Shown piece after piece: positions 1 to 12,316 of a DNA stretch of 12,316 nt (position 1 is the first letter of the stretch; each line of letters starts with the position of its first letter). The notes beneath the pieces are model-generated. The model was not told where the DNA came from. It did not search any database and worked only from the letters and a program-made list of their open reading frames with translations. The DNA lies in the UHGV virus genome UHGV-0059442; one strand, 5' to 3'. Source of the DNA: a virus. The translations under genes and the position numbers were made by a program.

Positions 1-49
1 GCGTCCATCTTGCCTGTCGCCATCTTGAAATCATGCAAAGAGGTTTCAC

Positions 50-532
50 ATGGAAGAACTTCACTTTGTTTACATCAATGCAAATGGTCGTATCGGAGTT
101 CACTCAATACAGAGCATCAGTTATAGCGAAAATCATATACAGGGCATTTGTAAGAACACCGATCGAATAAAAACCTTCCGAAAAGACCGCATTCTTAAAC
201 AGTACGATTCACCAGAACAAGCCATTCAGGAATGCGCGTCATTCCTCCCCGAAAACTACTCACACCTCACTAAGCAGTCTGGTCCGAAAAAAAATACATT
301 CGATGTGTGTTTCACCGGATTTAAGAAAGCAGATAAAGAAAGATTGGTTGATAAGGCGAATGAACAAGGATTAACGGTAAGAACCTCTGTAACCCAAAGC
401 CTTCAGATGCTCTGTTGCGGTTACAATGCAGGCCCATCAAAAGTATCGGCAGCCAGGATGAAAGGCACAATCATCATAGATGAGCCTGGCTTTATACATT
501 TTCTTGAAACGGGTGAGATCCCAGATGAATAA
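50..532 (+). CDS. Hypothetical two-domain protein: N-terminal WYL-like domain, C-terminal BRCT-like domain
   Basis: Complete 160-aa ORF; in-frame stop at 26-28 upstream; AAGAGG Shine-Dalgarno about 7 nt before ATG at 50. N-terminal segment FVYINANGRIGVHSIQSISYSENHIQGICKNTDRIKTFRKDRI fits the WYL-domain pattern ending in R-x-FR-x-DRI. C-terminal segment FDVCFTGFKKADKERLVDKANEQGLTVRTSVTQSLQMLCCGYNAGPSKVSAARMKGTIIIDEPGFIHFL resembles a BRCT fold as found at the C-terminus of NAD-dependent DNA ligases. Noticeably lower GC than the adjacent phage late genes. Confidence 0.5.
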   Translation: MEELHFVYINANGRIGVHSIQSISYSENHIQGICKNTDRIKTFRKDRILKQYDSPEQAIQECASFLPENYSHLTKQSGPKKNTFDVCFTGFKKADKERLVDKANEQGLTVRTSVTQSLQMLCCGYNAGPSKVSAARMKGTIIIDEPGFIHFLETGEIPDE

Positions 533-558
533 AAACCTGCCGTAGCAGGTTCTCTTTC
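533..558. terminator. Putative bidirectional intrinsic terminator between converging ORF 50..532 and ogr
   Basis: Hairpin ACCTGC (535-540) / loop CGTA / GCAGGT (545-550), preceded by a run of A (531-534, giving a U-tract on the minus strand just after the ogr stop at 559) and followed by T-rich TCTCTTTCTC on the plus strand. Confidence 0.5.
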
Positions 559-777
559 TCAAAAATTCATATGCCCCTGACCACCTGGCAATGGATGTGG
601 AGGAGCAGTAGCAATCAGTGCGGGTGTCACAATAAACCGGACCACTGTTTCATGGGTAACAAAAGTGCTCCCGCAGTTAATATTTTGGCACTGGCAGTAA
701 CGCTCTTTGGTGCTTTCAGTTACTTGAAAACTGCTCCTTGTGTGTGCCGCATGACCACACTTTGGACAATTCATCAT
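559..777 (-). CDS. ogr: Ogr/Delta-family zinc-finger late-gene transcriptional activator
   Basis: Translation from the internal Met (MMNCPKCGHAAHTRSS...TKERYCQCQNINCGSTFVTHE...PHPLPGGQ) is about 72 aa with the C-x2-C...C-x4-C arrangement and strong resemblance to P2 Ogr; the 87-aa ORF in the track is an N-terminal over-extension. Putative SD (AGGGA) upstream of ATG at 777. Confidence 0.85.
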   Translation of the reverse strand: MMNCPKCGHAAHTRSSFQVTESTKERYCQCQNINCGSTFVTHETVVRFIVTPALIATAPPHPLPGGQGHMNF

Positions 778-845
778 ATCCAGATCCCTACCTTTGCTAT
801 CAGAATCATTGTAATGATACACAAAATATCAATATTGAGAACACT

Positions 846-1250
846 TCATTCCATTTCAAGATCATCAATCTTCACTTCGAGTTCAATACTGGTCGTAAAA
901 CCATTATTCAGCGTTTCCCGAAAATCAGCACTTCGCGCCCGGATAGTCAGGCGGTCCGGTGCGCCAGTGTGTTCAATCTCGTCCACTGTGAATGCCCCTT
1001 TCGGGAAAAGCGGCTGCCCCTTCCAGCCCAGCGCCAGCGTAATAACCGCACCACGGCGCGGCAGCACGATTTTTCCGTCAGCGTCATCCAGCTCCAGATC
1101 AAGCTGGTCCGCTTCAAAGCCCCGGTTATCCGTCAGCGTCAAACTCATCAGGCGGTTATCCAGCACAGTGGTGATATCCCTGCCCTCAATACTGATGCTG
1201 AATGCGGGAGTTTTGTTGCCTTTGTTAAGCAGTTCAGAGCTGAAATTCAC
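846..1250 (-). pseudogene. D: Tail protein D (late control gene D family) remnant, only 134 aa; probable internal in-frame deletion
   Basis: N-terminal ~115 aa carry the gpD-family signature (TDNRGFEADQLDLELDD...PRRGA...LGW.G...G.FTVDEIEHTGAPDRLTIRARSADF); the last ~18 aa (GFTTSIELEVKIDDLEME) look like a D-protein acidic C-terminus. Full-length P2-type D proteins are close to 390 aa. GTG start at 1250 overlaps the U stop (GTGA). Confidence 0.7.
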
Positions 1251-1426
1251 GACAGCAGCCCTCCCACCGTTTTACTGATATCGCTTAAGGCAGACGTTGC
1301 CGTGTCCTGCAGATTATTCAGTTGCGCACTGAGATCACCGAACATATCGGACAGGGATTCATCCACTCGTTTGAGCGACAGGGTGAACTCAATCCGGCGC
1401 GGCATACCGTCCCGGATAGAGAAAAA
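1247..1426 (-). pseudogene. U: Tail protein U, C-terminal fragment only
   Basis: PFFSIRDGMPRRIEFTLSLKRVDESLSDMFGDLSAQLNNLQ... matches the C-terminal part of P2-type gpU (the ...RKIDFTLSLTRVDESL... region); the N-terminal two thirds are absent and the frame upstream runs into the J reading frame. Confidence 0.65.
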
Positions 1427-2087
1427 TGGTGGCTTCCACACGGTACGGGATGATTTCTGCACTGCGAACCGTCAGACGGTCAGCCACCGGGCGGACGTTC
1501 TCACTGTTCAGGGCTTTTTCCACCACATCCAGCAGGTCTTTTTCTGCTGTTCCGTCGCCTTCGCGGCTAAGGACTGTCAGCACCACCTCTGCAGGTGCCG
1601 GACTGGTTGCACTGGCATCCGCCACCCGACCGTCGGCGCTTCGGGCATGAAATTCATAAGCTGCAGTTGGCCCCGCAACTGAAAGCCCCTCAAAGGCTGC
1701 AGGCACACGCAGGCGTAACGCTTCATCGCTTTCCATCACAGCTGCAACGGGCGGCACAGCGTCATCATCAGCAGGCGTCACCGTCAGGCGTTTCACGTTG
1801 TAGTTGGCAGCGAGCTGGTCCAGATCGCCGCCCATCGCGTAAGCCACCATCACCGCCTGCGCGGCTTCGTTAATGCGCTGGCGCAGAAGCAACTCACGGT
1901 AAGCGTTCTCCTGCAGCAATTTGGTGACGGGTTCAGATTCCAGTTCCAGCGTGCGGATCACAGCCTCCTGCTCATCTTTCGGATGAAGCGCCACAAATTC
2001 TGCCTTGCGTTCGGCAAGCAGCGTCTCAAAGTCCGGCACATCCACAATCTGCGGCGCAGGCAACTGCGAAAGGTCAATCACTGCCAT
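1389..2087 (-). pseudogene. J: Baseplate assembly protein J, N-terminal ~225 aa only (truncated)
   Basis: MAVIDLSQLPAPQIVDVPDFETLLAERKAEFVALHP...LESEPVTKLLQENAYRELLLRQRINEAAQAVM matches gpJ N-terminus; the ORF stops at 1389 after about 232 aa whereas gpJ is about 300 aa; start ATG at 2087 overlaps the W 3' end. Confidence 0.8.
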
Positions 2088-2433
2088 TCTCTGCTCCTGT
2101 TGATACGGAAAGGGACACAGGCACACCGTTATTCCGCCGCCCGGTCAGCTCCACCACCATTGAACCGTCAAAATTGCTGTTGATGGTGATGGAATCCAGC
2201 GTCAGCCGTGGCTCCCAGCGACTCAGTGCCACATACACAGCCGACATGACCTGCAGGCGTAACGCCGGATTTTGTGGCTGATCTATTAAAGCCGACAGCA
2301 GGGAACCATATTCCCGGCGGGCAATGCGGCTACCCTGCGGTGTCAGCAGAATGTCCCGCACCGACTGGCGCAGATGGTCAATATCAGTAATAGCTTTACC
2401 GCTGGTATTGTTCATCCCGCTATAAAGCGTCAT
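2074..2433 (-). CDS. W: Baseplate wedge protein W (GPW/gp25 family)
   Basis: 119 aa; ...DIDHLRQSVRDILLTPQGSRIARREYGSLLSALIDQPQNPA...RWEPR... is typical of gpW/gp25 lysozyme-like baseplate proteins; ATGA overlap with the V stop. Confidence 0.85.
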   Translation of the reverse strand: MTLYSGMNNTSGKAITDIDHLRQSVRDILLTPQGSRIARREYGSLLSALIDQPQNPALRLQVMSAVYVALSRWEPRLTLDSITINSNFDGSMVVELTGRRNNGVPVSLSVSTGAENGSD

Positions 2434-3008
2434 ACCGGACCTCCGGTGGTATCGCCGCCTTTCAGGACGCCAGTATGCTGATGCGCATCAACCACGATCC
2501 CGTTAGAACTCATCGCTCCGCCGCCCTGGGTAACGCCACCATTGATCACCACTTCGCTGTTAATGCGCGTGCGGTCAGCCTCCAGTACAAACTCACTGGT
2601 TTTCATGGTGATGTTGTCAGCGGCCTCAATGACCATTGATTTGATGCCCCTGACATACCAGCGCCCACTGGCGGGTTCGTATTCAAACCAGCCACCGTCA
2701 GGATGTTCTGTCACGCAGGCGTCCGCCGACGTCGACGGTGGTGCGAACTGATTCGAATAGACAGCGGGCAGCGCAAAGGCCGTCTCCAGATTGCCGCCCA
2801 GACTCAGCAGCACCACCTGCTCACCTTCCGATGGTTTCCACCATGTGCGGGCATTACCCGCGCGCAGCGTCAGCCAGTTAATCCAGTTGGTTTCAAGGTC
2901 GCCCGTTTTCACCCGGCAAAGCCAGTTTTCCCGGTCCACTTCGGTGACTACACCAGTGCGGATCAGGTTGGTGATAAGGCGCATGATTTCGGTTAATTGT
3001 GCGTTCAT
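2430..3008 (-). CDS. V: Baseplate spike/assembly protein V
   Basis: 192 aa; N-terminus MNAQLTEIMRLITNLIRTGVVTEVD...WINWLTLRAGNARTWWKPSEGEQV and C-terminal HTGV...GGDTTGGPV resemble P2 gpV. Confidence 0.85.
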   Translation of the reverse strand: MNAQLTEIMRLITNLIRTGVVTEVDRENWLCRVKTGDLETNWINWLTLRAGNARTWWKPSEGEQVVLLSLGGNLETAFALPAVYSNQFAPPSTSADACVTEHPDGGWFEYEPASGRWYVRGIKSMVIEAADNITMKTSEFVLEADRTRINSEVVINGGVTQGGGAMSSNGIVVDAHQHTGVLKGGDTTGGPV

Positions 3009-3054
3009 AGGGAAAGGTTGCCATCAGGGGAAGAAAGGCGGCAGTGCTGCAACT

Positions 3055-3072
3055 TGTATCAGTGCTGATACA
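3055..3072 (-). promoter_or_regulatory. Candidate Ogr-dependent late promoter element (TGT-N12-ACA dyad) upstream of V
   Basis: TGT (3055-3057) - 12 nt ATCAGTGCTGAT - ACA (3070-3072), embedded in the near-perfect palindrome TTGTATCAG TG CTGATACAA, located in the S-V intergenic gap directly upstream of the V start. Confidence 0.5.
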
Positions 3073-3076
3073 AAGA

Positions 3077-3523
3077 TCATCCCGCCAGCCATTGCAGAAT
3101 CATGTCGCGGGTCATTGCCTCAACATCATCATTTACACCCAGCAGGCGGCGCTCTGCGTAACGGACCTCCGGTCCTTTGCGACTGACGCGATCACGCAGG
3201 CCGTAATGGTGAACACGGGCAATACGCTGCACCTTGCCTTCAAACTGTACGCTGGCAGAGTCGGCGCTGGCGGCAGTTTTCAGGTATTTTGTGGTGCGCA
3301 ACTTTGCAAACATCTGACGTTTGATGCGGCCTTTCTTGCTGCGTGCTGTTACCCTGCGCGGTTCATAACTGCTGCCATCTGGATTGCGCTGCATCCTGAT
3401 ATTCTGCTGCTGTGTCCGGCGCAGTTCCTGCGCCAGCTGGCGCATCATGCGGCTTCTCGTGGCTGGTTCCAGATTCGCCAGCAAGGCACTCAGCCAGTCG
3501 TCCACCTTCTGCAGTTCAGCCAC
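3077..3523 (-). CDS. S: Tail completion / virion morphogenesis protein S
   Basis: 148 aa; position between R and V and the MAELQKVDDWLSALLANLEPATRSRMMRQLAQELRRTQQ... pattern fit the gpS family. Apparent GTG start at 3523, 4 nt after the R stop. Confidence 0.75.
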   Translation of the reverse strand: MAELQKVDDWLSALLANLEPATRSRMMRQLAQELRRTQQQNIRMQRNPDGSSYEPRRVTARSKKGRIKRQMFAKLRTTKYLKTAASADSASVQFEGKVQRIARVHHYGLRDRVSRKGPEVRYAERRLLGVNDDVEAMTRDMILQWLAG

Positions 3524-3947
3524 GTTTCACCGTCCACATTTCTTCAGGTGCATCAGGTTCCGCTATAGCTTCAACGCTCGACACACTGCCGTCAGTGCTG
3601 ACCAGCACACGTTCCGTCAGTTGCAGGTTCAGGCTGATATCACAGACATCGTTGCGCAGAATATCCACCTCAAAGGTGAATAGCTTTTCCCGTAACGCCG
3701 GGTTATTGATGGCATCGGGCTGGTTATCCCTCAGCCACAGCAAAACCGGGGCCATCAGCAGATTCTGGTCGCCGCTGAAATCCTCAATCACCGCGTTCAG
3801 TGTGTAACGGTACTCCCACGACATGGAGCTGGCCCCCGTGGCAACCAGCGAACCGTTATCCACAAACAGATGCAGTTTGTCCGGGTTATTGCGGACATAA
3901 GGCACCGCTTTATTGAGGGCGTGGCGCAGGGATTGTGGTTTGTTCAC
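3516..3947 (-). CDS. R: Tail completion protein R
   Basis: ...KPQSLRHALNKAVPYVRNNPDKLHLFVDNGS...YRYTLNAVIEDFSGD...PVLLWLRDNQPD resembles P2 gpR; I place the start at the GTG at 3947, preceded by an AGGAG SD, rather than the upstream start at 3968. Confidence 0.75.
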   Translation of the reverse strand: MNKPQSLRHALNKAVPYVRNNPDKLHLFVDNGSLVATGASSMSWEYRYTLNAVIEDFSGDQNLLMAPVLLWLRDNQPDAINNPALREKLFTFEVDILRNDVCDISLNLQLTERVLVSTDGSVSSVEAIAEPDAPEEMWTVKRG

Positions 3948-4200
3948 TGTTTCGCTCCTGACACGCAATAATCATGTCCACTTTGTCTGCACAGACCGCC
4001 CAGGCGGCCTCCGTTTCATCCAGCAACGCGTTCAGGCCACCGTTAGTGCGCGGCGCTGCCTGTCCCAGCCGACACGGCGTCACTCGCGGACAACCACTGA
4101 CGGTAAGCTGCACCTCCGGTGAGTGTGGGGCGTTCCCGCAGCCGGATAATGTCAGCAGGCAAAGGTGTATCAGCCCAGCGGCGTAAATCCTCGTTCTCAC
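3910..4200 (-). CDS. lysC: Outer-membrane lipoprotein spanin (Rz1-like), embedded out of frame in lysB and overlapping R
   Basis: Signal peptide with lipobox (MRTRIYAAGLIHLCLLTLSGC), Pro-rich mature part; nested in the +1 frame of lysB and extending into R exactly as P2 lysC does. Start uncertain (apparent GTG at 4200). Confidence 0.65.
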   Translation of the reverse strand: MRTRIYAAGLIHLCLLTLSGCGNAPHSPEVQLTVSGCPRVTPCRLGQAAPRTNGGLNALLDETEAAWAVCADKVDMIIACQERNSEQTTIPAPRPQ

Positions 4201-4471
4201 GTTTCAGTTCCTCAATCCGGTGTTGTCGTTGTCTCAGCAGTACACTGGTCTGTTCTGCTTCGGCATAGAGCCGCGCCTGCTCCCGGTTATTGGTTTCAGT
4301 CAGAATGGACAGGCTGATAAGCTGGCTATTGCTCTTTGCCAGTGCCTGGCTTTTGCTCTGCAGCTCGTCTGCCTGCGTGCTGATGGTCTGGCTGGCATCA
4401 GCCAGCCGCCACGTCTGCCAGCCCAGCGCCGCCAGTAATAACGCCAGCACAACCAGCAGCAACCGGTTCAT
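4043..4471 (-). CDS. lysB: Inner-membrane spanin (Rz-like)
   Basis: 142 aa; N-terminal transmembrane helix (MNRLLLVVLALLLAALGWQTW) followed by coiled-coil-like, Q/E/R-rich periplasmic domain; position immediately upstream of R with lysC embedded. Confidence 0.8.
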   Translation of the reverse strand: MNRLLLVVLALLLAALGWQTWRLADASQTISTQADELQSKSQALAKSNSQLISLSILTETNNREQARLYAEAEQTSVLLRQRQHRIEELKRENEDLRRWADTPLPADIIRLRERPTLTGGAAYRQWLSASDAVSAGTGSAAH

Positions 4472-4575
4472 GCTGATACCTGTTGCGCCATCTGATTACG
4501 GGTGATCCAGAAGGCAATAACGGTCAGTAGATAAAAGACCAGGGTAATAGCCCACCCCGTCCAGCGCCAATCGCT
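4471..4575 (-). pseudogene. Remnant 3' end of the gene preceding lysB (lysA-like membrane protein), ~33 codons
   Basis: Reading the minus strand in the frame whose TGA overlaps the lysB ATG (ATGA) gives ...DWRWTGWAITLVFYLLTVIAFWITRNQMAQQVSA*, a hydrophobic helix tail. The frame is closed by a stop about 35 codons upstream and there is no start, so only a C-terminal stub remains. Confidence 0.4.
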
Positions 4576-5084
4576 TTATGCAGACGCGCCCGTGACTGGT
4601 CCGGCATATCCAGACCGTCTGTCAGCTCCAGCGTCTGCAACAACAGATCGGCATCAAAGCCGGTGGCGGCAAGCATTGCGCTCTGCGCGGCGTCTGCCAT
4701 TTCCTCTGCCAGCACGGTCTGCACGTTGCGGTTACCCAGCGGCATCACCCAGCCATGACGCAGGGCATGACGCCCGATCTCCAGCGCCCCGGCATAATCT
4801 CCGGCATCAATGCGCCACAGCATCACGTACATCAGCACGTCATCCTGTTGAGCGCCTCCGGCAGCCAGGACACCCTCTGCCCAGGCGGCGTACTTCGGCA
4901 GCAGCTCCACCTTGATTTCCGCTTTTTTGACCGTGGACTGAACGCCCTTGAGACGGCGGCGGTCTTCCGCCAGTTGCAGCAGCATCAGGTCATAGCCCGA
5001 TGCGTGGCGAACACTGCCGCCCTCGCGGGCGGCCTGTTCAGCCTGAACGCGCAGGCGATGCTGCCGTGCGGGACTCAGGCTCAT
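4524..5084 (-). pseudogene. M: Terminase endonuclease (small) subunit M, C-terminally truncated
   Basis: MSLSPARQHRLRVQAEQAAREGG...LLPKYAAWAEGVLAAGGAQQDDVLMYVMLWRIDAGDYAGALEIGRHALRHG... matches P2 gpM over about 175 aa, then ends in a non-matching tail (...GRGGLLPWSFIY*) at 186 aa; P2 gpM is about 250 aa. Confidence 0.8.
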
Positions 5085-5087
5085 GGA

Positions 5088-6146
5088 TTACGCTCCGGTT
5101 TCGGCTGCGGCGGCGCTGAAATCACCAATCTGGATGTTTTCCACCAGTGCGGCGCAGCGGTAGTCCTCAACCACATAGGCTTCATTAACGGATTCAAAGT
5201 TTTCAATCCGGTCACGTTTCGGGTTGTCGATAACTGAACGGCGGCGGGTGTCTTCCTGCCAGTAGATGGACAGGTTATCCAGACGGGTGATCAGCAGCGC
5301 ATTCGGCGGGAAGAACGGCGCACGCACGGCCTGCAGGCCACCCATGCGTTTCTGGCTGATGATCATATCGGCAGCCAGTTTTTCACTGTTTTCCTGCTCT
5401 TTGTTGACCAGCGGGAAATACTTGTCAGACAACAGTTCACGACCGCAAATCACCACCAGATCGTCATCGTCCTGGTAAACCACGTCGATAAGCTCATTGA
5501 CGGCATCCATCACCACAGCGTCCAGGTTGGCATATTCGCCACCTTTCCCGACTTTCACCGCACCCGGAGTGGTTTCACCGCCCGTGGTGGTGCTGCCCAT
5601 GACGTGATCCGGTGCATCCTCACGGATTTTCTGCAGCCAGCCTTTGTTCACATCCTGCAGCAGCGGGTTTTCGCTACGGTTGGAGGTTTTCGCACGCTTC
5701 ACGCCGTTAAAGCCGATCATGATGCGGTCCAGTGCCTGACGTTTCACGATGGCGTCACGGATGCGCACCTGGAAATCCTGAAACTTCGCCCACAGATCCA
5801 GCTTCGCGTAGGTCAGCACCGTGTCAAAGTTGGTCTGCTCGCATTTATATTCCACATCGACCATCAGGGTCGGATCGACGGGTTCACGCTCTTTCGCGGT
5901 GGTGTCAGTGGTTCCGGCAATGGTGCTGCCAACACCCAGCCCCAGCAGCTGACCGGACTGCTCAGTCACTGGCGTGACGTTAATCAGCGTCAGGAAAGCG
6001 GCGGACTGCTGGATCTGGTCCTCCAGCGTCTGCTGCACAGACGGCTCCACAGTGAATTTGCTGGACAGTTCTTCAACTGCCACACCGTTCAGACGCGCCA
6101 GCTGCTGCAGGTAAGCGTTAAAAGCAAAGCGGGTATTCTTCTTCAT
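5088..6146 (-). CDS. N: Major capsid protein N
   Basis: 352 aa, size and sequence typical of P2 gpN; immediately downstream of O, with its stop 3 nt before the M start. Confidence 0.9.
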   Translation of the reverse strand: MKKNTRFAFNAYLQQLARLNGVAVEELSSKFTVEPSVQQTLEDQIQQSAAFLTLINVTPVTEQSGQLLGLGVGSTIAGTTDTTAKEREPVDPTLMVDVEYKCEQTNFDTVLTYAKLDLWAKFQDFQVRIRDAIVKRQALDRIMIGFNGVKRAKTSNRSENPLLQDVNKGWLQKIREDAPDHVMGSTTTGGETTPGAVKVGKGGEYANLDAVVMDAVNELIDVVYQDDDDLVVICGRELLSDKYFPLVNKEQENSEKLAADMIISQKRMGGLQAVRAPFFPPNALLITRLDNLSIYWQEDTRRRSVIDNPKRDRIENFESVNEAYVVEDYRCAALVENIQIGDFSAAAAETGA

Positions 6147-6162
6147 CGGGTTTTGTGCTCCA

Positions 6163-6996
6163 TCAGCAATTGGTCAGAGTGTCAGCGGGGGCGTTACCGC
6201 CTGTTGCACGCTGGCGGTAGTCCTGGCGGCTGTCTACATGACTCAGCTTATTCACCAGTTCGTTAAAGGCGGTCTGCTGTGCCTGCAGGGCAGTCTCCAG
6301 CTCAGACAGACGTTCTTCCTGCTCAGACAGGGATTTTTCGGTGCGTGCGCTCAGGTTCTGCTGCTCAGTGGCGACCAGCTCCACGGCCTTATGCACATCA
6401 GAGAACCGGGCGTCATCGGACTGCTCTTTTTTGGTAAACAGCGCCGTGACGCGGGCAAACAGGGACGGTTTGTCGTCCTGGACTTCTTCCAGTTCGATCA
6501 CCGTTTCCTCTGCGGCGGTAAAGAGATTGGCGGGATTCTGCTTGCGGTTTGCCAGCGGGTTATGGGCTGCACTGGCGCTGAATGTCAGCATTTCAGTGCC
6601 CAGACTGGCAGGGTCATCAGTGGCAGCCAGGCCGACCAGGTAGGCTTTGCCCGTATCAGCGAACTTCGGGCTGACTTCCATAGAGGTGAATAATTTCTGG
6701 CCTTTTTTCACCAGCTCCACCAGGGACTCCGTTGGCTCAACGTCGGCATACAGCGCCATCTTGCCTGCCAGCGGACCTTCCGTGATTTCTTCAGCAAACA
6801 GCGCCGTCACCTTGCCGTAGCGGTTAAAGGTGCTGTCCGGCAGATAAGACTTGATGTGCTCAAGGTTAATCAGCGCGGTATACACCGCCGGGTTATAGCT
6901 GGCTGCCATCTGTTCCAGCCATTCACGCTGGATTTCGCGTCCGTCGGTGGTGGCACCTTCCACCCCGATGCGAAAACGCTTTGCTTTCACTGTCAT
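6163..6996 (-). CDS. O: Capsid scaffolding protein O
   Basis: 277 aa; FRIGVEGATTDGREI...INLEH...YLVGLAATDDPASLGTE...SDDARFSDVH...ATGG...TNC closely resembles P2 gpO; GGAG SD about 9 nt upstream of ATG at 6996. Confidence 0.9.
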   Translation of the reverse strand: MTVKAKRFRIGVEGATTDGREIQREWLEQMAASYNPAVYTALINLEHIKSYLPDSTFNRYGKVTALFAEEITEGPLAGKMALYADVEPTESLVELVKKGQKLFTSMEVSPKFADTGKAYLVGLAATDDPASLGTEMLTFSASAAHNPLANRKQNPANLFTAAEETVIELEEVQDDKPSLFARVTALFTKKEQSDDARFSDVHKAVELVATEQQNLSARTEKSLSEQEERLSELETALQAQQTAFNELVNKLSHVDSRQDYRQRATGGNAPADTLTNC

Positions 6997-7009
6997 GAGC
7001 CGTGCTCCG

Positions 7010-7432
7010 TTAGAAAAAACTTACTGGAGCCTTATGGTTGCGGTGATAGGGGCAGTGAAACAATGCGCGGTATTTGTACCGACAACCGTGACGATTGAGA
7101 TACAGGAAATATACCGCTTTCATGAAATCAGTAATTTCAGTTGAGTAATTAAACTCCTGCCTTATGTTGTAATAAGCTACCTCCCTGTTTGCGATCTCAA
7201 ATAAAACTCTGGCGCGAGATATAAACGATTCACAATCAGCGGCAACCTTTTTATAGAGGTTGATTAAATCAGGATTAATATCCGCAACCAGATAGCTGGG
7301 GTAATCCGTCTCCATCATCACAGCACAGGAACCCGCGAAAGGTTCAACCAGTCGCGGGCCAGCAGGAAGGTGTTTTTTCAGTTCGGACATAATGGCGGTT
7401 TTATTTCCCGCCCATTTCAGGATGGTGCTCAT
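7010..7432 (-). pseudogene. dam: DNA adenine methyltransferase (Dam, D12 class), N-terminal ~120 aa only
   Basis: From the internal Met: MSTILKWAGNKTAIMSELKKHLPAGPRLVEPFAGSCAVMMETDYPSYLVADINPDLINLYKKV...FLYLNRHGCRY... carries the AdoMet-binding motif (EPFAGS) and aligns with the first part of E. coli Dam, but the ORF ends at 7010 without the catalytic DPPY motif. Start ATGA-overlaps the upstream traR-like gene. Confidence 0.8.
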
Positions 7433-7656
7433 ACAGCACCTCCGTTGTAATGTTTGCCTTTCAGCTCTGCGATTTCCTGACAGGTAATGCAAAGCTGCAC
7501 ACCTGGAATGGCGCGGCGGCGTGCTGGCGGAATTGGCGCTTCACACTCAATGCAAAGCACGCGGGACACGCCCGGCGTTTTGGCACGGGCAGCACGGATA
7601 TGGCGCTGGCGTTCTTCTTCAACGCGCTGCTGTACAAGATCCATTGCATCAGCCAT
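7429..7656 (-). CDS. TraR/DksA-family C4 zinc-finger protein (phage early region)
   Basis: 75 aa with CIECEAPIPPARRRAIPGVQLCITCQ (C-x2-C-x17-C-x2-C); AGGAG SD upstream of ATG at 7656. Confidence 0.7.
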   Translation of the reverse strand: MADAMDLVQQRVEEERQRHIRAARAKTPGVSRVLCIECEAPIPPARRRAIPGVQLCITCQEIAELKGKHYNGGAV

Positions 7657-7889
7657 TAGTGGATCTCCTGCGCTTCGTTCTGGATTGCTTCAGCAGTTAC
7701 ACGCAGTAGTTCTGCTGCTTCGACGTGGTTTAGCTGGCGGGATGTGATATGACACGCCAGGCTATCAAGGCGAGCTGCCATTGCTTCAGCCCTTGCCCGG
7801 CGTTCTTCCAGACGAGCCTCTGTCAGTAAAATATTAAGCCCTGCATCATCCGGTCCGGTTTTAGTCGTGAGGGTTTCAATATTACGCAT
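7656..7889 (-). CDS. Hypothetical phage early protein
   Basis: 77-aa ORF from the ATG at 7889 with AGGAG SD about 8 nt upstream; Ala/Arg/Glu-rich, helical-looking; no family recognised. Confidence 0.45.
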   Translation of the reverse strand: MRNIETLTTKTGPDDAGLNILLTEARLEERRARAEAMAARLDSLACHITSRQLNHVEAAELLRVTAEAIQNEAQEIH

Positions 7890-7956
7890 AATCAATTCTC
7901 CTGAATTTAGATAAAGGGATACCCGGCGGGTTTACGCCATTAATTTCATTAGTTGG

Positions 7957-8298
7957 TTAATTCGGCATGGTTAGCCGTCTTGGAAATAAGCTCACCACTG
8001 CACGAAAATGATTCATTGCTTTAATCAACTCCCGCTTTTCGTCAGTGGTCAGCTCATTAATGCTGATGCTATGACGTTCAGCTGGAATTTTTGCCATAAA
8101 GAATATAGCAGCCAGTGCCCGTTTATTTTGTTCGTTATTGATATCCCGTGGATCACGCATATCTTTAATAAACCGCTCAAGCTCTGACTCAATATTCAGG
8201 CCAAATACTTTCGCCCTTAACTCCGCAATATGGTTAAGTCCATTCAGGCGTTCACCGGGGCTTAATGGAACAGTCGCCGCAGCGCCTTCAATAGCCAT
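7957..8298 (-). CDS. Hypothetical phage early protein
   Basis: 113-aa ORF with a G-rich SD before the ATG at 8298; no family recognised. Confidence 0.45.
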   Translation of the reverse strand: MAIEGAAATVPLSPGERLNGLNHIAELRAKVFGLNIESELERFIKDMRDPRDINNEQNKRALAAIFFMAKIPAERHSISINELTTDEKRELIKAMNHFRAVVSLFPRRLTMPN

Positions 8299-8462
8299 TT
8301 GTTCCCCCGTTTTTTCGTAGATAGTTCTGCCAGCAATTCATCTTGTGAACGGCACGGATGCCAGCGTTTACCATCCTCCCCCATGATCCAGCCGTGACCG
8401 TAGTGCATTGCCGGGCTTTGTTTTACCAGCAGCGATGCAAATGATGGTTCTTTCGTCAGCAT
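8262..8462 (-). CDS. Hypothetical phage early protein (position corresponds to fil/dhr of phage 186)
   Basis: 66 aa if started at the ATG at 8462 (GAGGTG SD 5 nt upstream, 7 nt after the cII stop); Cys/Trp/His-containing small protein. Confidence 0.4.
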   Translation of the reverse strand: MLTKEPSFASLLVKQSPAMHYGHGWIMGEDGKRWHPCRSQDELLAELSTKKRGNKWLLKALRRLFH

Positions 8463-8469
8463 AAGCACC

Positions 8470-8979
8470 TCACAGCAAACCGAATGACGCACCGAGGCCA
8501 GTTACAGTATCAACTGCACTTGCCATCGCAGGATTAGCCTGTAAACGGGCCTGCAATGAAACAGCCGCCAGCGCCATCAGTCGTGTTACAGAGTTAATGC
8601 TGCTGATAGCATCACGACGACCTGCACTGGTTTTTACATCGCCAGATACCGCACCTGCAGCAACACGCCCGATCTCTGCAGTTGCACTCATGACGTAATG
8701 CGGCAGTTTCTCTTTTGCCACCTCATTAATCGGAACACATGGCAGACAATGAATCTGTGCCAGAAAACCGTCTACCAACGTTGAATCTTCAGTCAGATCG
8801 GTAAGCAACCAGATTTCTGGTGCGGTGAGCTGATGCGGTTGATCTGGATTGAGTTTGTTTCGCAGTGTCTGAACATTCATTCCTGCACGTTCTGCCAGCT
8901 TTGCCATATTGTGACGTAGTGCAAAAGCTCTACAGGCTTCATCAAAATGCGGATGTTTGGAAATCTTGTAATCAAACAT
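8470..8979 (-). CDS. cII: CII-type lysogeny-establishment regulator (phage 186 CII family)
   Basis: 169 aa; MFDYKISKHPHFDEACRAFALRHNMAKLAERAGMNVQTLRNKLNPDQPHQLTAPEIWLLTDLTEDSTLVDGFLAQIHCLPCVP... matches my recollection of 186 CII nearly along its length, including the HTH. Confidence 0.8.
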   Translation of the reverse strand: MFDYKISKHPHFDEACRAFALRHNMAKLAERAGMNVQTLRNKLNPDQPHQLTAPEIWLLTDLTEDSTLVDGFLAQIHCLPCVPINEVAKEKLPHYVMSATAEIGRVAAGAVSGDVKTSAGRRDAISSINSVTRLMALAAVSLQARLQANPAMASAVDTVTGLGASFGLL

Positions 8980-9011
8980 GCTGCCCCCTTAGAAAGTTCT
9001 CATAATTGAAC

Positions 9012-9260
9012 TTAGTCACCAACGATGACATTAAAGTTGAAATTGGATTGGCCCATGTTTTTCCTGACTTGTTCCTTTTTGTACTCAAGGTAACGTATAC
9101 ATACTCTGTCTTTCGGTTTTTCTTTTCTTTCCAAGAATTTAGCGAGTTTACCATTATGAATCATTTGATATACCGAACCGCGAGAGCGGCCTTCCCATTC
9201 CGCGAACTCAGCTGGTGTCGCCATCACTTTTGGTACACGAATTGAAATGTCGTTGCTCAT
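9012..9260 (-). CDS. apl: Apl/Cox-type excisionase and lytic-switch regulator
   Basis: 82-aa first gene of the leftward early operon, divergent from cI; basic HTH-like small protein (...RGSVYQMIHNGKLAKFLERKEKPKDRVCIRYLEYKK...). Confidence 0.7.
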   Translation of the reverse strand: MSNDISIRVPKVMATPAEFAEWEGRSRGSVYQMIHNGKLAKFLERKEKPKDRVCIRYLEYKKEQVRKNMGQSNFNFNVIVGD

Positions 9261-9270
9261 AGTGCAGTAT
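9242..9270 (+). promoter_or_regulatory. Candidate lysogenic promoter pL for cI-int
   Basis: TTGAAA (9242-9247) - 17 nt - CAGTAT (9265-9270) on the plus strand inside the apl 5' end, facing cI. Confidence 0.35.
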
Positions 9271-9310
9271 CTCTCGATTAAGGTTTGGTTTACGTCGTTT
9301 TATCTTGTTT

Positions 9311-9364
9311 TATTTGATTCAATATTTGATACACCAAGATACTACGATCCAATATTTGATACGT
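9311..9364. repeat. Direct repeats of an ATTTGATA-containing motif (candidate CI operators) overlapping pR
   Basis: GATTCAATATTTGATACAC (9316-9334) and GATCCAATATTTGATACGT (9346-9364), 17 of 19 identical, 30 bp apart; a further TATTTGAT at 9311-9318. Confidence 0.5.
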
Positions 9365-9367
9365 CAA
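9339..9367 (-). promoter_or_regulatory. Candidate lytic promoter pR for apl-cII operon
   Basis: On the minus strand TTGACG (9367-9362) - 17 nt - TAGTAT (9344-9339); strong sigma-70 match, oriented toward apl. Confidence 0.5.
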
Positions 9368-9379
9368 CAGGATTAAAAA

Positions 9380-10012
9380 ATGATACAAGTAAAAGCTGGC
9401 GAGAATACAGGGGGAAGAGAGGCTATCCATAGGCTAATGGCAGCCTATGATTTCAAGTCCAGACAGCAACTTTGCGATCACTTGGGCGCATCAAAAAGCA
9501 CTATGGCAAACAGATACTTAAGAGATAGTTTTCCTGCAGAATGGGTGATTCAGTGCGCTTTGGAAACAGGAGTTTCTTTACTGTGGCTAACTACCGGACA
9601 GGGCGATCCAGGTTCAAACATTGACCCTAAAAGAAATATCAATTCCGTGAACTCTAGCAAAGTTAAACCTCTTTCGGAGCTTGTATCTCCTGAAATTGAC
9701 AAGGCAACTCTCAACGGAGGTTTGCTGATCGATGCTGGAAAAGCAATCATTGATAGCAGCATACTCCCCTCAGACTCAAGCAACCTGCTGCTGGTGACTA
9801 CTTCTGGTGATTCTTATTTAATAGATCGCAACCAAACACCACCAGTAAATGGTACGTGGTTAGTGGACATCGACGGGATAAAAAGCATTGTAAAATTGAC
9901 ACGACTCCCGGGAAACAGATTAGTAGTGCATCAGGATGATTCATCGTTTGAGTGCGAACTGGATGACATTGAGGTAATAGGCCGCGCACTGAAAATCATT
10001 AAGAGCCTTTGA
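9380..10012 (+). CDS. cI: CI-type immunity repressor (186-like, HTH N-terminal domain plus C-terminal domain)
   Basis: 210 aa; N-terminal HTH (SRQQLCDHLGASKSTMANRYLRDSFPAEWVIQCALETGVSLLWL); sits immediately upstream of int and divergent from apl. Size fits 186 CI rather than the ~100-aa P2 C. Confidence 0.8.
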   Translation: MIQVKAGENTGGREAIHRLMAAYDFKSRQQLCDHLGASKSTMANRYLRDSFPAEWVIQCALETGVSLLWLTTGQGDPGSNIDPKRNINSVNSSKVKPLSELVSPEIDKATLNGGLLIDAGKAIIDSSILPSDSSNLLLVTTSGDSYLIDRNQTPPVNGTWLVDIDGIKSIVKLTRLPGNRLVVHQDDSSFECELDDIEVIGRALKIIKSL

Positions 10013-10013
10013 T

Positions 10014-11036
10014 ATGACCATCAGAAAACAGCCGAACGGAAAGTGGTTATGTGAATGCTACCCAAACGGGCGAGATGGCAAACGCGTACGCAAACAATTT
10101 GCGACGAAAGGCGAAGCCATTGCGTTTGAGAATTTCACCATGGACGAGGTAAACAAGAAACCTTGGCTAGGAGAAAAAGAAGATCGGCGACAACTGTCAG
10201 AAGTGATTGAGCAGTGGTATTCCCTGTATGGTCAGACACTCGCTGACCCAAAGCGTTTGATGGCAAAATTAAAAATTATTTGTACCGGTCTCGGCAATCC
10301 TATTGCCTCGGAACTGACAGCAGGTGATTTCACAAAATATCGGGAAGCCAGATTAAAGGGGGAGGTCAAAAATGAAGACGGTGTTTTCATGTCCCCCGTA
10401 AAACCTCGCACGGTTAATCTTGAGCAGCGTAACCTGTCATCTGTATTCGGCACATTGAAAAAACTAGGACACTGGTCAGCACCAAACCCATTGGCAGGGC
10501 TTCCAACATTTAAAATTGCTGAAGGTGAATTGGCATTCCTATCTCAGGAGGAAATTAAACGCCTACTTGACGCCTGCGCAAACTCTCAAAATCCAAGTCT
10601 GTTGATGATCGCAAAGGTATGCTTGGCTACCGGCGCGCGCTGGAGTGAAGCGGAAAACTTACAGGGCCACCAATTATCAAAATACCGTATTACCTATACA
10701 AAGACGAAAGGAAAGAAAAATAGGACAGTACCGATATCTCAGGCTCTCTATGACGAACTCCCCAAAAACAGAGGGAAGTTATTCACGCCATGCAGAAAGG
10801 CTTTTGAACGAGCGGTCAAACGGGCTGGTATTGAACTGCCTGAAGGTCAGTGTACCCATGTTCTGCGCCATACATTCGCCAGTCATTTTATGATGAACGG
10901 TGGAAACATACTCGTTTTGAAAGATATTCTTGGGCATTCAGATATTAAAATGACTATGATTTATGCACATTTTTCCCCTGATCATTTAGAAGATGCAGTA
11001 ACTAAAAATCCACTTTATTCGCTATTAAAGGACTAA
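10014..11036 (+). CDS. int: Tyrosine integrase (P2/186 family)
   Basis: 340 aa; C-terminal catalytic region ...HVLRHTFASHFMMNGGNILVLKDILGHSDIKMTMIYAHF... with conserved Arg, His-x-x-Arg and Tyr; ATG 1 nt after the cI stop. Confidence 0.9.
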   Translation: MTIRKQPNGKWLCECYPNGRDGKRVRKQFATKGEAIAFENFTMDEVNKKPWLGEKEDRRQLSEVIEQWYSLYGQTLADPKRLMAKLKIICTGLGNPIASELTAGDFTKYREARLKGEVKNEDGVFMSPVKPRTVNLEQRNLSSVFGTLKKLGHWSAPNPLAGLPTFKIAEGELAFLSQEEIKRLLDACANSQNPSLLMIAKVCLATGARWSEAENLQGHQLSKYRITYTKTKGKKNRTVPISQALYDELPKNRGKLFTPCRKAFERAVKRAGIELPEGQCTHVLRHTFASHFMMNGGNILVLKDILGHSDIKMTMIYAHFSPDHLEDAVTKNPLYSLLKD

Positions 11037-11039
11037 ATA

Positions 11040-12266
11040 ATGACTCTCCATCAAACTTTATCTAAAGAATTAAGAGATTTATTTGTTAGTATTTTAAGAC
11101 GTTCTCTTTTTCGCCCCCCCATCAAAATAAATGGGGATATAGTCTCTGATTTTTCAAACAGATGCGAGCAGTTCAAAGAGTGCCTAAATGAATACATTTG
11201 TGATAACAATAATGCTGCTTCCGAAAGAGTTAAGCCAAGAATTAAAACTATTGAAAAAATACAACATGGATTAACTAATTCTCTTAAAGCATTTTTATCT
11301 GGCGACATTAAAGGAGCCTACGATATTTTTGATGAAGTTTTATCATACCCTACTGTCTATAGACATCTAAGAAGAATATCCATTCCACTAAAAGAAATAT
11401 GTAATAAGCACAAGCCTTTATTCAGGGTAAGAAAGTCAGATAGACCAGTCGTAACAAGAAAGGAAATATTTCATATCCCATTCACTCATCGACATCTTGT
11501 CAATGCTCAACGCTACTCCGTTGCAGGTTTGCCATGCCTTTACTTAGGTTCATCTCTCTATATATGCTGGCAGGAAATGGATAAACCTGACTTTGATAAA
11601 TTATACCTATCATCATTTATATCTTGGGATGAGGAATCTTATATTTTAAATTTAGCTGCAGATTTTCTTTACAGTAGAACCGCTAAAGGATTTTACGGTG
11701 ATATTAGTAATAGAGATAACCTCATTAAAATATCATATTTAACTTTATGGCCTCTGATAATTGCATGTAATTATTTAAAGCAGAATGAAAACTCTTCATT
11801 TAATCAAGAATATATCATCCCAAATTTGTTAATGCAGTGGATAAGTCGACTTGAAGATAGAGCTATTGTCGGCATAGCATATCGCTCAACAAAAATAAAA
11901 AGAACAGCAAACTCACACTTAGCAACTAATGTCGTCTTGCCTCCAAAAGTAAACTATGAAGATACAATCACAAAACCTTATTGTCAGAAACTATTGTCAA
12001 TGTTTGAGTTTACTCAACCTGTATCATGGCAGGTTTTGAAAACATTAGACTATAAAATTGATAATGAAATAAATCAAGAGCAAGAAAAAGCAATTCATTT
12101 ACTAAAACAGAAAGAAAGATTAAGTGGCATACAAGATTTAAATGAAGATCTTATAAACCTTTATCCTTTAACAGACTTCTACAAGCTAGAACAGTGCATG
12201 GATCGCCTGCTACAGTATGATGTACTTGAGATAAAATCTGGCGGCACTTTGGCGGCAGAGCATTAA
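11040..12266 (+). CDS. RES-domain protein with N- and C-terminal extensions (putative standalone toxin/defence effector)
   Basis: 408-aa ORF, ATG 3 nt after the int stop; strongly AT-rich. Central region shows RES-domain hallmarks: LFRVRK..., AQRYSVAGLPCLYLGSSLYICWQEM (compare the G-R-W-N...P-x-L-Y...E core of RES toxins) and the C-terminal motif IAYRSTKIKRTANSHLATNVVLPP (compare ...PSA...N-x-V-L). About 125 aa upstream and 100 aa downstream of the RES core are unassigned. Confidence 0.6.
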   Translation: MTLHQTLSKELRDLFVSILRRSLFRPPIKINGDIVSDFSNRCEQFKECLNEYICDNNNAASERVKPRIKTIEKIQHGLTNSLKAFLSGDIKGAYDIFDEVLSYPTVYRHLRRISIPLKEICNKHKPLFRVRKSDRPVVTRKEIFHIPFTHRHLVNAQRYSVAGLPCLYLGSSLYICWQEMDKPDFDKLYLSSFISWDEESYILNLAADFLYSRTAKGFYGDISNRDNLIKISYLTLWPLIIACNYLKQNENSSFNQEYIIPNLLMQWISRLEDRAIVGIAYRSTKIKRTANSHLATNVVLPPKVNYEDTITKPYCQKLLSMFEFTQPVSWQVLKTLDYKIDNEINQEQEKAIHLLKQKERLSGIQDLNEDLINLYPLTDFYKLEQCMDRLLQYDVLEIKSGGTLAAEH

Positions 12267-12316
12267 AAATAGGTAAAACAAGCAAACACACAATAACACT
12301 AACATACTAATTTTAA

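Follow-up and report, generated by a model that had tools for sequence, protein, structure and literature searches.

A cryptic 186-type prophage at ssrA of Escherichia coli, probably gutted recently by four microhomology-flanked deletions

Phages 186 (Eganvirus) and P2 (Peduovirus) are the natural points of reference for UHGV virus genome UHGV-0059442, a stretch of 12,316 nucleotides that we analysed as a whole and call the window. We consider it highly probable that the window is almost the entire length of a defective (cryptic) Peduoviridae prophage, which combines 186-type regulation with Wadgaonvirus-type late genes, sits at ssrA and was gutted recently. Its genes follow the order of the two reference phages (ogr/B, D, U, J, W, V, S, R, lysC, lysB, M, N, O, early genes, cII, apl, cI, int), its CI, Apl, CII and Fil proteins are of the 186 type, and it has a TGT-N12-ACA late-promoter site, as P2 and 186 do. 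However, DNA identity to these phages is only 65-73%, 63% of the genome is missing, and integration is at ssrA, whereas 186 uses ileY and P2 uses sites of its own. Wadgaonvirus-type prophages of E. coli and Klebsiella (such as 500465-1 and the prophage L021) are much closer. They share the site, the two cargo genes and the att repeat with the window and are 96-100% identical to it by block, but they are complete at about 34 kb, and the cI allele of L021 differs.

Remnants of such prophages are also known. The K-12 cryptic prophage PR-X (ogrK and the D fragment yegZ) is likewise a P2-family deletion remnant that has kept the att-proximal ogr and a fragment of D; it differs in measuring 0.6 kb, in occupying another site and in having lost its regulators and integrase, and so represents a much later stage of decay. 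Remnants at the ybjL/rcdA site (L022, L023, L024, L148, L149, L150) carry one to three deletions with short microhomology, have lost the same late genes and in several cases share a breakpoint in gene M with the window, although their site, integrase and partner breakpoints are different and most of them keep P and Q. One to three similar internal deletions were found in many other E. coli P2-like prophages, among them L022, L023, L024, L025, L146-L150 and L163. Incomplete prophages preferentially lose genes for replication, packaging and release, while integrases are enriched among them (PMC7744054), and "grounded" prophages have been defined by the loss of excision functions (PMC6379469). 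The idea of preferential loss of lytic functions is therefore already published. The window agrees with these concepts in that replication, packaging and release are lost and the integrase is kept, but it differs from grounded prophages in keeping int, apl and both att cores while its lytic machinery is inactivated. It is a very ordinary further instance of a well-known kind of element.

A megablast search of phage and E. coli collections returned P2-like Peduoviridae, specifically Wadgaonvirus-type genomes, at 96-99% identity. Taken as single pieces, these matches reached at most about half of the window's length, and 80% or more of it was present in no complete E. coli genome. For comparison we used the intact phage 500465-1 (L001, NC_049342), the TUM2820 prophage (L002), the prophages L160, L153 and L155, and L021, the intact prophage of E. 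coli Z1322HEC0005, which occupies the same ssrA-ypjA site as the window; P2 and 186 were compared as well. In the contig L018, a 38-bp direct repeat corresponding to the 3' end of ssrA lies on both sides of the element (1063-1100 and 13533-13570), the tmRNA gene being at 13526-13888. The chromosomal flanks consist of smpB-ssrA with housekeeping genes at one end and ypjA at the opposite end. Since the edges of the window lie 82 bp (start) and 35 bp (end) inside the two repeats, the window is essentially the whole remnant. Its host is a rare E. coli lineage in which the 3' end of ssrA is occupied.

A tyrosine integrase of 340 amino acids (aa), together with direct repeats at the tmRNA gene, identifies an integrated temperate phage, and the retained genes, all in P2 order and all matching P2, 186 and Wadgaonvirus genomes, place it in the Peduoviridae. 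The Ogr/Delta zinc-finger late activator is accompanied by a TGT-N12-ACA site, which we take to act as the activator site of a late promoter, as in P2 and 186. A cI gene encoding N- and C-terminal CI domains diverges from an apl-cII-fil early operon, which is the arrangement of the 186-type switch. Nearly all open reading frames (ORFs) from about 560 to 9260 are on the minus strand and are followed by cI, int and an ORF of low GC content on the plus strand. Gene A with the origin (ori), cos, the portal gene Q and the terminase gene P are absent, all of them being inside a 9.2-kb block lost at the junction between dam and O. Their absence makes the element defective and says nothing against its P2/186 ancestry. 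An Rfam scan of the window gave no match.

Aligned by BLAST with its intact relatives, the window falls into six collinear blocks, separated by exactly four internal deletions (Table 1; sizes are relative to L021). The interval 9275-9902, within apl and cI, is not a fifth. It is a divergent immunity allele, and L153 and L155 align across it unbroken. Another apparent deletion, near fil, is seen against L002 only; L021 aligns through it, so we treat it as an allelic difference. All four breakpoints that the earlier note had proposed (inside D; J to U; M to a lysA stub; dam to O) were thus recovered, and the lost blocks hold the genes it had expected to be missing (I, H, G, FI, FII, E and T; L, X, holin and endolysin; A, cos, Q and P). 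The microhomology it had suggested looking for at the junctions is also there, 3-4 nt at each of the four, when the window is aligned with both parental sequences (L160 for the late blocks, L153/L155 for the early block). Junction 2 could be taken for a 23-nt overlap, but the identical parent L160 reduces the perfect microhomology to 3 nt.

By our own calculation, the chance of at least 3 nt of microhomology at a random junction is about 0.05, and that of finding it at four out of four is about 7e-6. This is strong evidence for microhomology-mediated illegitimate recombination, which we infer to be the mechanism of the deletions. Measured against L021, a prophage of about 33.9 kb would have lost about 21.5 kb in four such deletions, leaving 12.4 kb; replication slippage or template switching, or end-joining of breaks, might have been the route. 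The deletion in D is in frame (232 codons) and the other three junctions produce short out-of-frame tails. The resulting fusion ORFs are D' (134 aa), J' (232 aa), M' (186 aa) and dam' (140 aa).

How old are these deletions? From position 7084 to 12316 the window shows no mismatch in 5233 bp to the intact prophages L153 and L155, which still carry dam, A, Q and P. Positions 1409-4564 (3156 bp) and 4562-7087 (2526 bp) likewise match the intact prophage L160 without a mismatch. Because the retained blocks are 100.000% identical to intact prophages, the deletions must be very recent, younger than any point mutation. This matters for the reading of the surviving genes. We assessed ORF integrity by length and internal stops in comparison with the homologues in intact L021, and ogr, W, V, S, R, lysC, lysB, N, O, the early genes, cI, int and the cargo genes are all full length with no internal stops. 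The earlier note was right that cI, int, apl, cII, ogr, N, O, V, W, R, S and the spanin genes have intact frames, each as long as its homologue in L021. Its interpretation of this as selective erosion is not demonstrated, since with no substitutions relative to intact relatives, intact frames are expected with or without selection. All copies of the remnant are identical, and nothing has changed from which the ratio of non-synonymous to synonymous substitution (dN/dS) could be computed.

Selective erosion, or domestication, deserves consideration nevertheless. It would mean that losses of lethal or costly functions were favoured and that immunity, regulatory and cargo genes were held by purifying selection. 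The outcome does resemble the pattern described at the population level (PMC7744054) and the hypothesis of grounded prophages (PMC6379469). In addition, none of the genes cI, int, apl, cII and ogr and neither of the cargo genes is damaged, and intact homo-immune phages exist against which cI would protect. However, the recent origin of the deletions makes ORF integrity uninformative. Genes that no longer have a use (O, N, V, W, R, S, lysB, lysC) are just as intact, and with about 5 kb of such structural genes kept, the survivors are not specifically regulators. When we placed four non-overlapping deletions of the observed sizes at random, none of the five regulators was affected in 16% of trials; regulators and cargo both escaped in 15%, and in 11% the complete pattern arose, with A and the lysis genes hit as well. 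Deletion 3 has its M-side end in a mutational hot spot described below, which points to mutation bias rather than selection. Finally, the remnant is rare, being found in a handful of contigs and in 0 of 5426 complete E. coli genomes. We attribute the survival of the regulators mainly to their end position on the prophage map, to the lack of time to decay and to a likely constraint on the loss of cI, which by analogy with the 186 switch would derepress pR and with it Fil and other early proteins. Selection for domestication is possible, though undemonstrated from the present data, and as the explanation of the pattern it seems to us unlikely.

A different question is whether there were four events at all. 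A single catastrophe, such as abortive induction or replication in situ followed by joint microhomology end-joining, might have produced the four deletions together. In exact-sequence look-ups in a collection of 153 billion gene positions, the four junction-specific fusion proteins were found only together, with one exception, and no intermediate carrying a subset of the junctions appeared. The microhomology signature is the same at all four junctions, and there has been no divergence since the deletions. The independence of the deletions that the earlier note asserted is accordingly not shown. On the other hand, exact look-ups would miss diverged intermediates. The exception, L020 (Logan SRR30938771, 1287 bp corresponding to window 4281-5567), has the same lysA/M junction on a background that differs by 28 mismatches (2.2%) and is closer to other phage alleles, e.g. 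those of L129 and L001; either the identical deletion recurred or the deletion allele was moved by recombination. Moreover, remnants with one, two or three deletions exist, and stepwise decay is therefore common. We regard a single event as a doubtful explanation.

The junctions themselves are hardly in question. An identical 12.3-kb sequence (100%) was obtained from different samples by different assemblers (MEGAHIT, SPAdes and Logan; ERZ919766, ERZ1314529, Logan ERR414450 and Logan SRR31145707), exact look-up of each fusion protein led to the same five to seven contigs, which match up to 12,316 bp of the window at 100% identity, and contigs of 38 kb and 61 kb carry host genes directly outside both att repeats. 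With the same sequence in independent assemblies, the idea that the junctions are assembly artefacts, or that the missing genes lie elsewhere in a rearranged intact prophage, found no support; the contigs exclude it as far as contigs can, and we consider it extremely improbable.

Hardly more credible is the idea that the remnant still works as a derived element, be it a phage satellite, a capsid-forming island, a tailocin or a gene transfer agent. It does keep int and the excisionase, the two att cores, the genes for capsid and scaffold, and ogr. However, there is no replication gene or ori, primase, portal, large terminase or cos, the small terminase is truncated, the sheath, tube and tape-measure genes (FI, FII, T) are absent and D, J and U broken, junction 4 cuts into the PO activator site, the fusions leave ORFs out of frame (that in D being in frame at its junction), and the window contains neither a replication and packaging module of its own nor a complete sheath-tube-baseplate set.

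Several points weigh against the reading we prefer, that of a prophage recently gutted by four deletions. The missing intermediates are one, as the deletions may have come in any order, as four separate events or as one with many breaks; in a DNA search, junctions 1 and 3 were absent from the 5426 complete E. coli genomes, junctions 2 and 4 not having been searched for separately. Loss of lytic functions with retention of regulators and cargo is just the pattern that models of selection predict. The carriers are seen as contigs and not as a closed genome, so that a second P2-like prophage elsewhere in the carrier is possible. Lastly, what we say below on immunity, excision and the lack of induction is deduced from gene content.

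If the prophage was gutted as we suggest, what can the remnant still do? Having lost A with the ori, cos, P, Q, L, most tail genes, holin and endolysin, it should be incapable of replicating, of packaging, of assembling particles and of lysing its host, in agreement with what the earlier note had concluded. In the 186-type switch, SOS induction is driven by the LexA-controlled antirepressor Tum. The DinI/Tum-like gene of the relatives (e.g. L021 11508-11741) falls in the deletion at junction 4, and by analogy with 186 the remnant would not be inducible by SOS after losing the Tum-like antirepressor. The CI/Apl/CII switch, Int and both att cores are complete, so the remnant should confer immunity to homo-immune phages and may be able to excise. 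Such phages do exist: a CI identical to that of the window occurs in intact prophages, and L153 and L155 have the same apl-cI allele (9012-10012). Relative to L021, CI is only 52% and Apl 71% identical at the amino acid level, as against about 99% for int and cII on either side. A CI this different implies another immunity type, and to judge from these alignments the apl-cI module is a swapped allele, typical mosaicism.

A putative pR-like promoter faces cI in a position that presumably corresponds to pR of 186. Pattern searches found the PV activator site intact and showed that junction 4 cuts the left half of the activator dyad shared by PO and PP. With the dyad halved and O, N and M' now placed directly downstream of the truncated early operon ending in dam' (6997-7432), transcription of the capsid and scaffold genes may now depend on read-through from pR instead of activation by Ogr.

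Two cargo genes lie between the phage genes and the att sites. The 160-aa protein has a weak Pfam BRCT match, a match to PHROG 2561 and a weak PADLOC match (PDC-S48); in NC_049342 it is mis-annotated as "DNA ligase". The 408-aa protein gave no Pfam, NCBIfam or PADLOC match. Its gene is widespread, occurring in 994 blocks of the collection and in many intact prophages, in which its position is always the same; we consider it a candidate moron or defence gene. A cargo slot between A/dinI and the portal gene Q was lost at junction 4. Nearly every relative has a different gene set there; examples from L010-L015, L146, L150 and L021 include DarT together with a macro-domain protein, a reverse transcriptase, an AAA ATPase with DUF4435, DUF4145, and DUF2971 with DUF4062. 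This fits a hot spot of anti-phage defence genes.

Table 1. Coordinates of genes, blocks, deletions, junctions and regulatory sites in the window, with breakpoints in gene M of other prophages
Feature	Position	Strand	Description and basis
cargo gene	50..532	+	160 aa, between ogr and the ssrA-side att; BRCT-like (LigA C-terminal-like); 100% aa identity to L021
ogr	559..777	-	Ogr/Delta zinc-finger late activator, 72 aa; Pfam PF04606, E = 9e-21; 72/72 identical to L021
D'	846..1250	-	tail gene D, 134 of 366 aa left; PHROG 52 tail protein
U 3' fragment	1247..1416	-	about 56 codons, without native start
J'	1389..2087	-	baseplate J, N-terminal part (about 226 of 302 aa) plus short out-of-frame tail; Pfam Baseplate_J
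W	2074-2433	-	baseplate, intact; full length compared with L021, Pfam
V	2430-3008	-	baseplate, intact; full length compared with L021, Pfam
PV late-promoter activator site	3055..3072	-	TGT-N12-ACA, intact; pattern search
S	3077-3523	-	tail completion, intact compared with L021
R	3516-3947	-	tail completion, intact compared with L021
lysC	3910-4158	-	spanin, intact; L002/L021 annotation
lysB	4043-4471	-	spanin, intact; L002/L021 annotation
lysA 3' stub	4468..4564	-	97 nt; block ends at L002 23171 within lysA (23075-23452)
M'	4524..5084	-	small terminase, aa 1-174 of 216 plus 12-aa out-of-frame tail; Pfam PF05944, intact M P0016
N	5088-6146	-	major capsid, intact; DNA 100% identical to L160
O	6163-6996	-	scaffold, intact; DNA 100% identical to L160
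dam'	7010..7432	-	Dam methylase, aa 1 to about 116 of 285 plus tail from O/P intergenic DNA; Pfam PF02086, N-terminal half only
traR-like	7429-7656	-	intact; 100% DNA identity to L153, L155
DUF2732 gene	7656-7889	-	intact; 100% DNA identity to L153, L155
DUF5347 gene	7957-8298	-	intact; 100% DNA identity to L153, L155
fil	8262-8462	-	intact; Fil domain; 100% DNA identity to L153, L155
cII	8470-8979	-	intact; Phage_CP76 domain; 100% DNA identity to L153, L155
apl	9012..9260	-	Cox-like excisionase and repressor, 82 aa, intact; PHROG 575, 6912
pR-like sigma-70 promoter (predicted)	9339..9367	-	facing cI, switch region; consensus scan only
cI	9380..10012	+	186-type repressor, 210 aa, intact; Pfam PF07022, PF16452
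int	10014..11036	+	tyrosine integrase, 340 aa, intact; Pfam Int_N, Phage_integrase; 98.8% identity to L021
cargo gene	11040..12266	+	408 aa, between int and the ypjA-side att; GC about 32%; PHROG 7835, where the function is not known
block	1-907		cargo gene, ogr, D 3' end; BLAST
block	905-1416		D 5' part, U 3' part; BLAST; matches L001 27876-28387
block	1409-4564		J 5' part, W, V, S, R, lysC, lysB, 97-nt lysA stub; BLAST
block	4562-7087		M 5' part, N, O, part of O/P intergenic region; BLAST
blocks	7084-9274 and 9903-12316		dam 5' part, traR-like, DUF2732, DUF5347, fil, cII, apl, cI, int, 408-aa cargo; BLAST
deletion 1 (696 bp)			removes most of D
deletion 2 (about 9705 bp)			removes U 5' part, T, E/E', FII, FI, invertase, tail-fibre genes, I, J 3' part
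deletion 3 (1888 bp)			removes M 3' part, L, X, holin, endolysin, lysA 5' part
deletion 4 (about 9166 bp)			removes P, Q, cos region, cargo slot, DinI/Tum-like gene, A with ori, dam 3' part
junction 1	905-907		inside D, in frame; microhomology TAT
junction 2	1409-1411		U to J; perfect microhomology GTC; 7/8 nt match over 1409-1416; parents L021 (U), L160 (J)
junction 3	4562-4564		lysA to M; microhomology CAG; M-side end at M nt 521-523
junction 4	7084-7087		O/P intergenic to dam; microhomology AACC
gpM breakpoints in other prophages	L022 12099-12101; L023 12100-12101; L149 10522-10523; L146 10543-10549; L148 6446-6450; L150 9047		

The M-side end of junction 3 (L002 position 25057) is not peculiar to the window. 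To the nucleotide, the same end is found in L020 and in L022, L023 and L149, which occupy another att site and in which it is joined to lysC, T and U, respectively. We searched with the M' protein, aligned the matches with intact gpM, the product of M, and mapped the fusion points back to DNA. There are many distinct M-fusion proteins, and their breaks cluster in three places: nt 521-525 of M (partners lysA, X, K, lysC, T twice, and U), nt 545-549 (partners L, FI, FII and T), and a minor cluster of a few breaks at nt 535-541. Within the range where breaks could be detected, only four or five fall outside these clusters, and an inversion accounts for one event. At the DNA level, L150 joins M nt 546 to D. 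Among complete genomes, where the count is unbiased, M was broken in 5 of 987 records when nt 424-651 were used as the query, at least three of these breaks being at the hot spots (nt 523 in L022 and L023, nt 546 in L150), and in 1 of 987 with nt 1-520. The deletions are one-sided: the N-terminal part of M is kept together with N and O, and downstream late genes are lost. Numerous independent P2-like prophages of E. coli, integrated at more than one att site, carry them, and at least 12 different partner ends are involved. Microhomology at the hot-spot junctions is just 1-4 nt, and the partner sites share no common motif. In a scan of IMG/VR, junction variants gave 0 matches against more than 120 intact copies.

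None of the explanations that we tried accounts for this hot spot. A hairpin or cruciform is not indicated (DNA fold z = 0.25), the prophage has no Chi site, and of a possible dispersed repeat there is one partial copy only, in FI. Likeness to the gpA nick site at ori or to the ssrA att core is equalled by 13% and 10% of prophage windows, respectively. Likeness to P2 cos is limited to GGCG...GAAAGCA with different spacing, and the sole fuzzy match in L002 is in the O-P intergenic region. A linker in M that tolerates insertions and deletions is contradicted by the invariance of this protein region. As to self-targeting by clustered regularly interspaced short palindromic repeats (CRISPR), no spacer-like match of at least 28 nt to M nt 500-565 occurs in the 5426 complete genomes, and one junction retains the putative protospacer-adjacent motif and the protospacer. 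A speculative suggestion is that DNA is broken site-specifically, or replication blocked, at nt 521-525 and 545-549 of M by an undescribed activity of host or phage, and that this recurrently starts the inactivation of these prophages; we hold it with little confidence.

Other ends are shared between remnants. A site in U (L002rc 36969) is used in L148 (7107-7109, E to U) and in L149 (10522-10523, M to U), and L022 (9062-10096) and L024 (6825-7859) have in common the same 1035-nt piece from the 3' end of the tape-measure gene T.

What does such a remnant mean for the P2-like family? As a clean example of early decay, with junctions mapped to the base and ancestor-like intact phages still circulating, it can serve as a worked case but leaves existing knowledge unchanged. 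It also carries a caution: only once a prophage remnant has diverged from intact relatives can its intact frames count as evidence of domestication. If the gpM site is indeed a place of specific breakage or stalling, prophage decay in the P2-like family would be partly programmed by sequence, and mutation bias, besides selection, would shape which prophage genes go first. It would also offer a tractable system in which to study illegitimate recombination in natural genomes.

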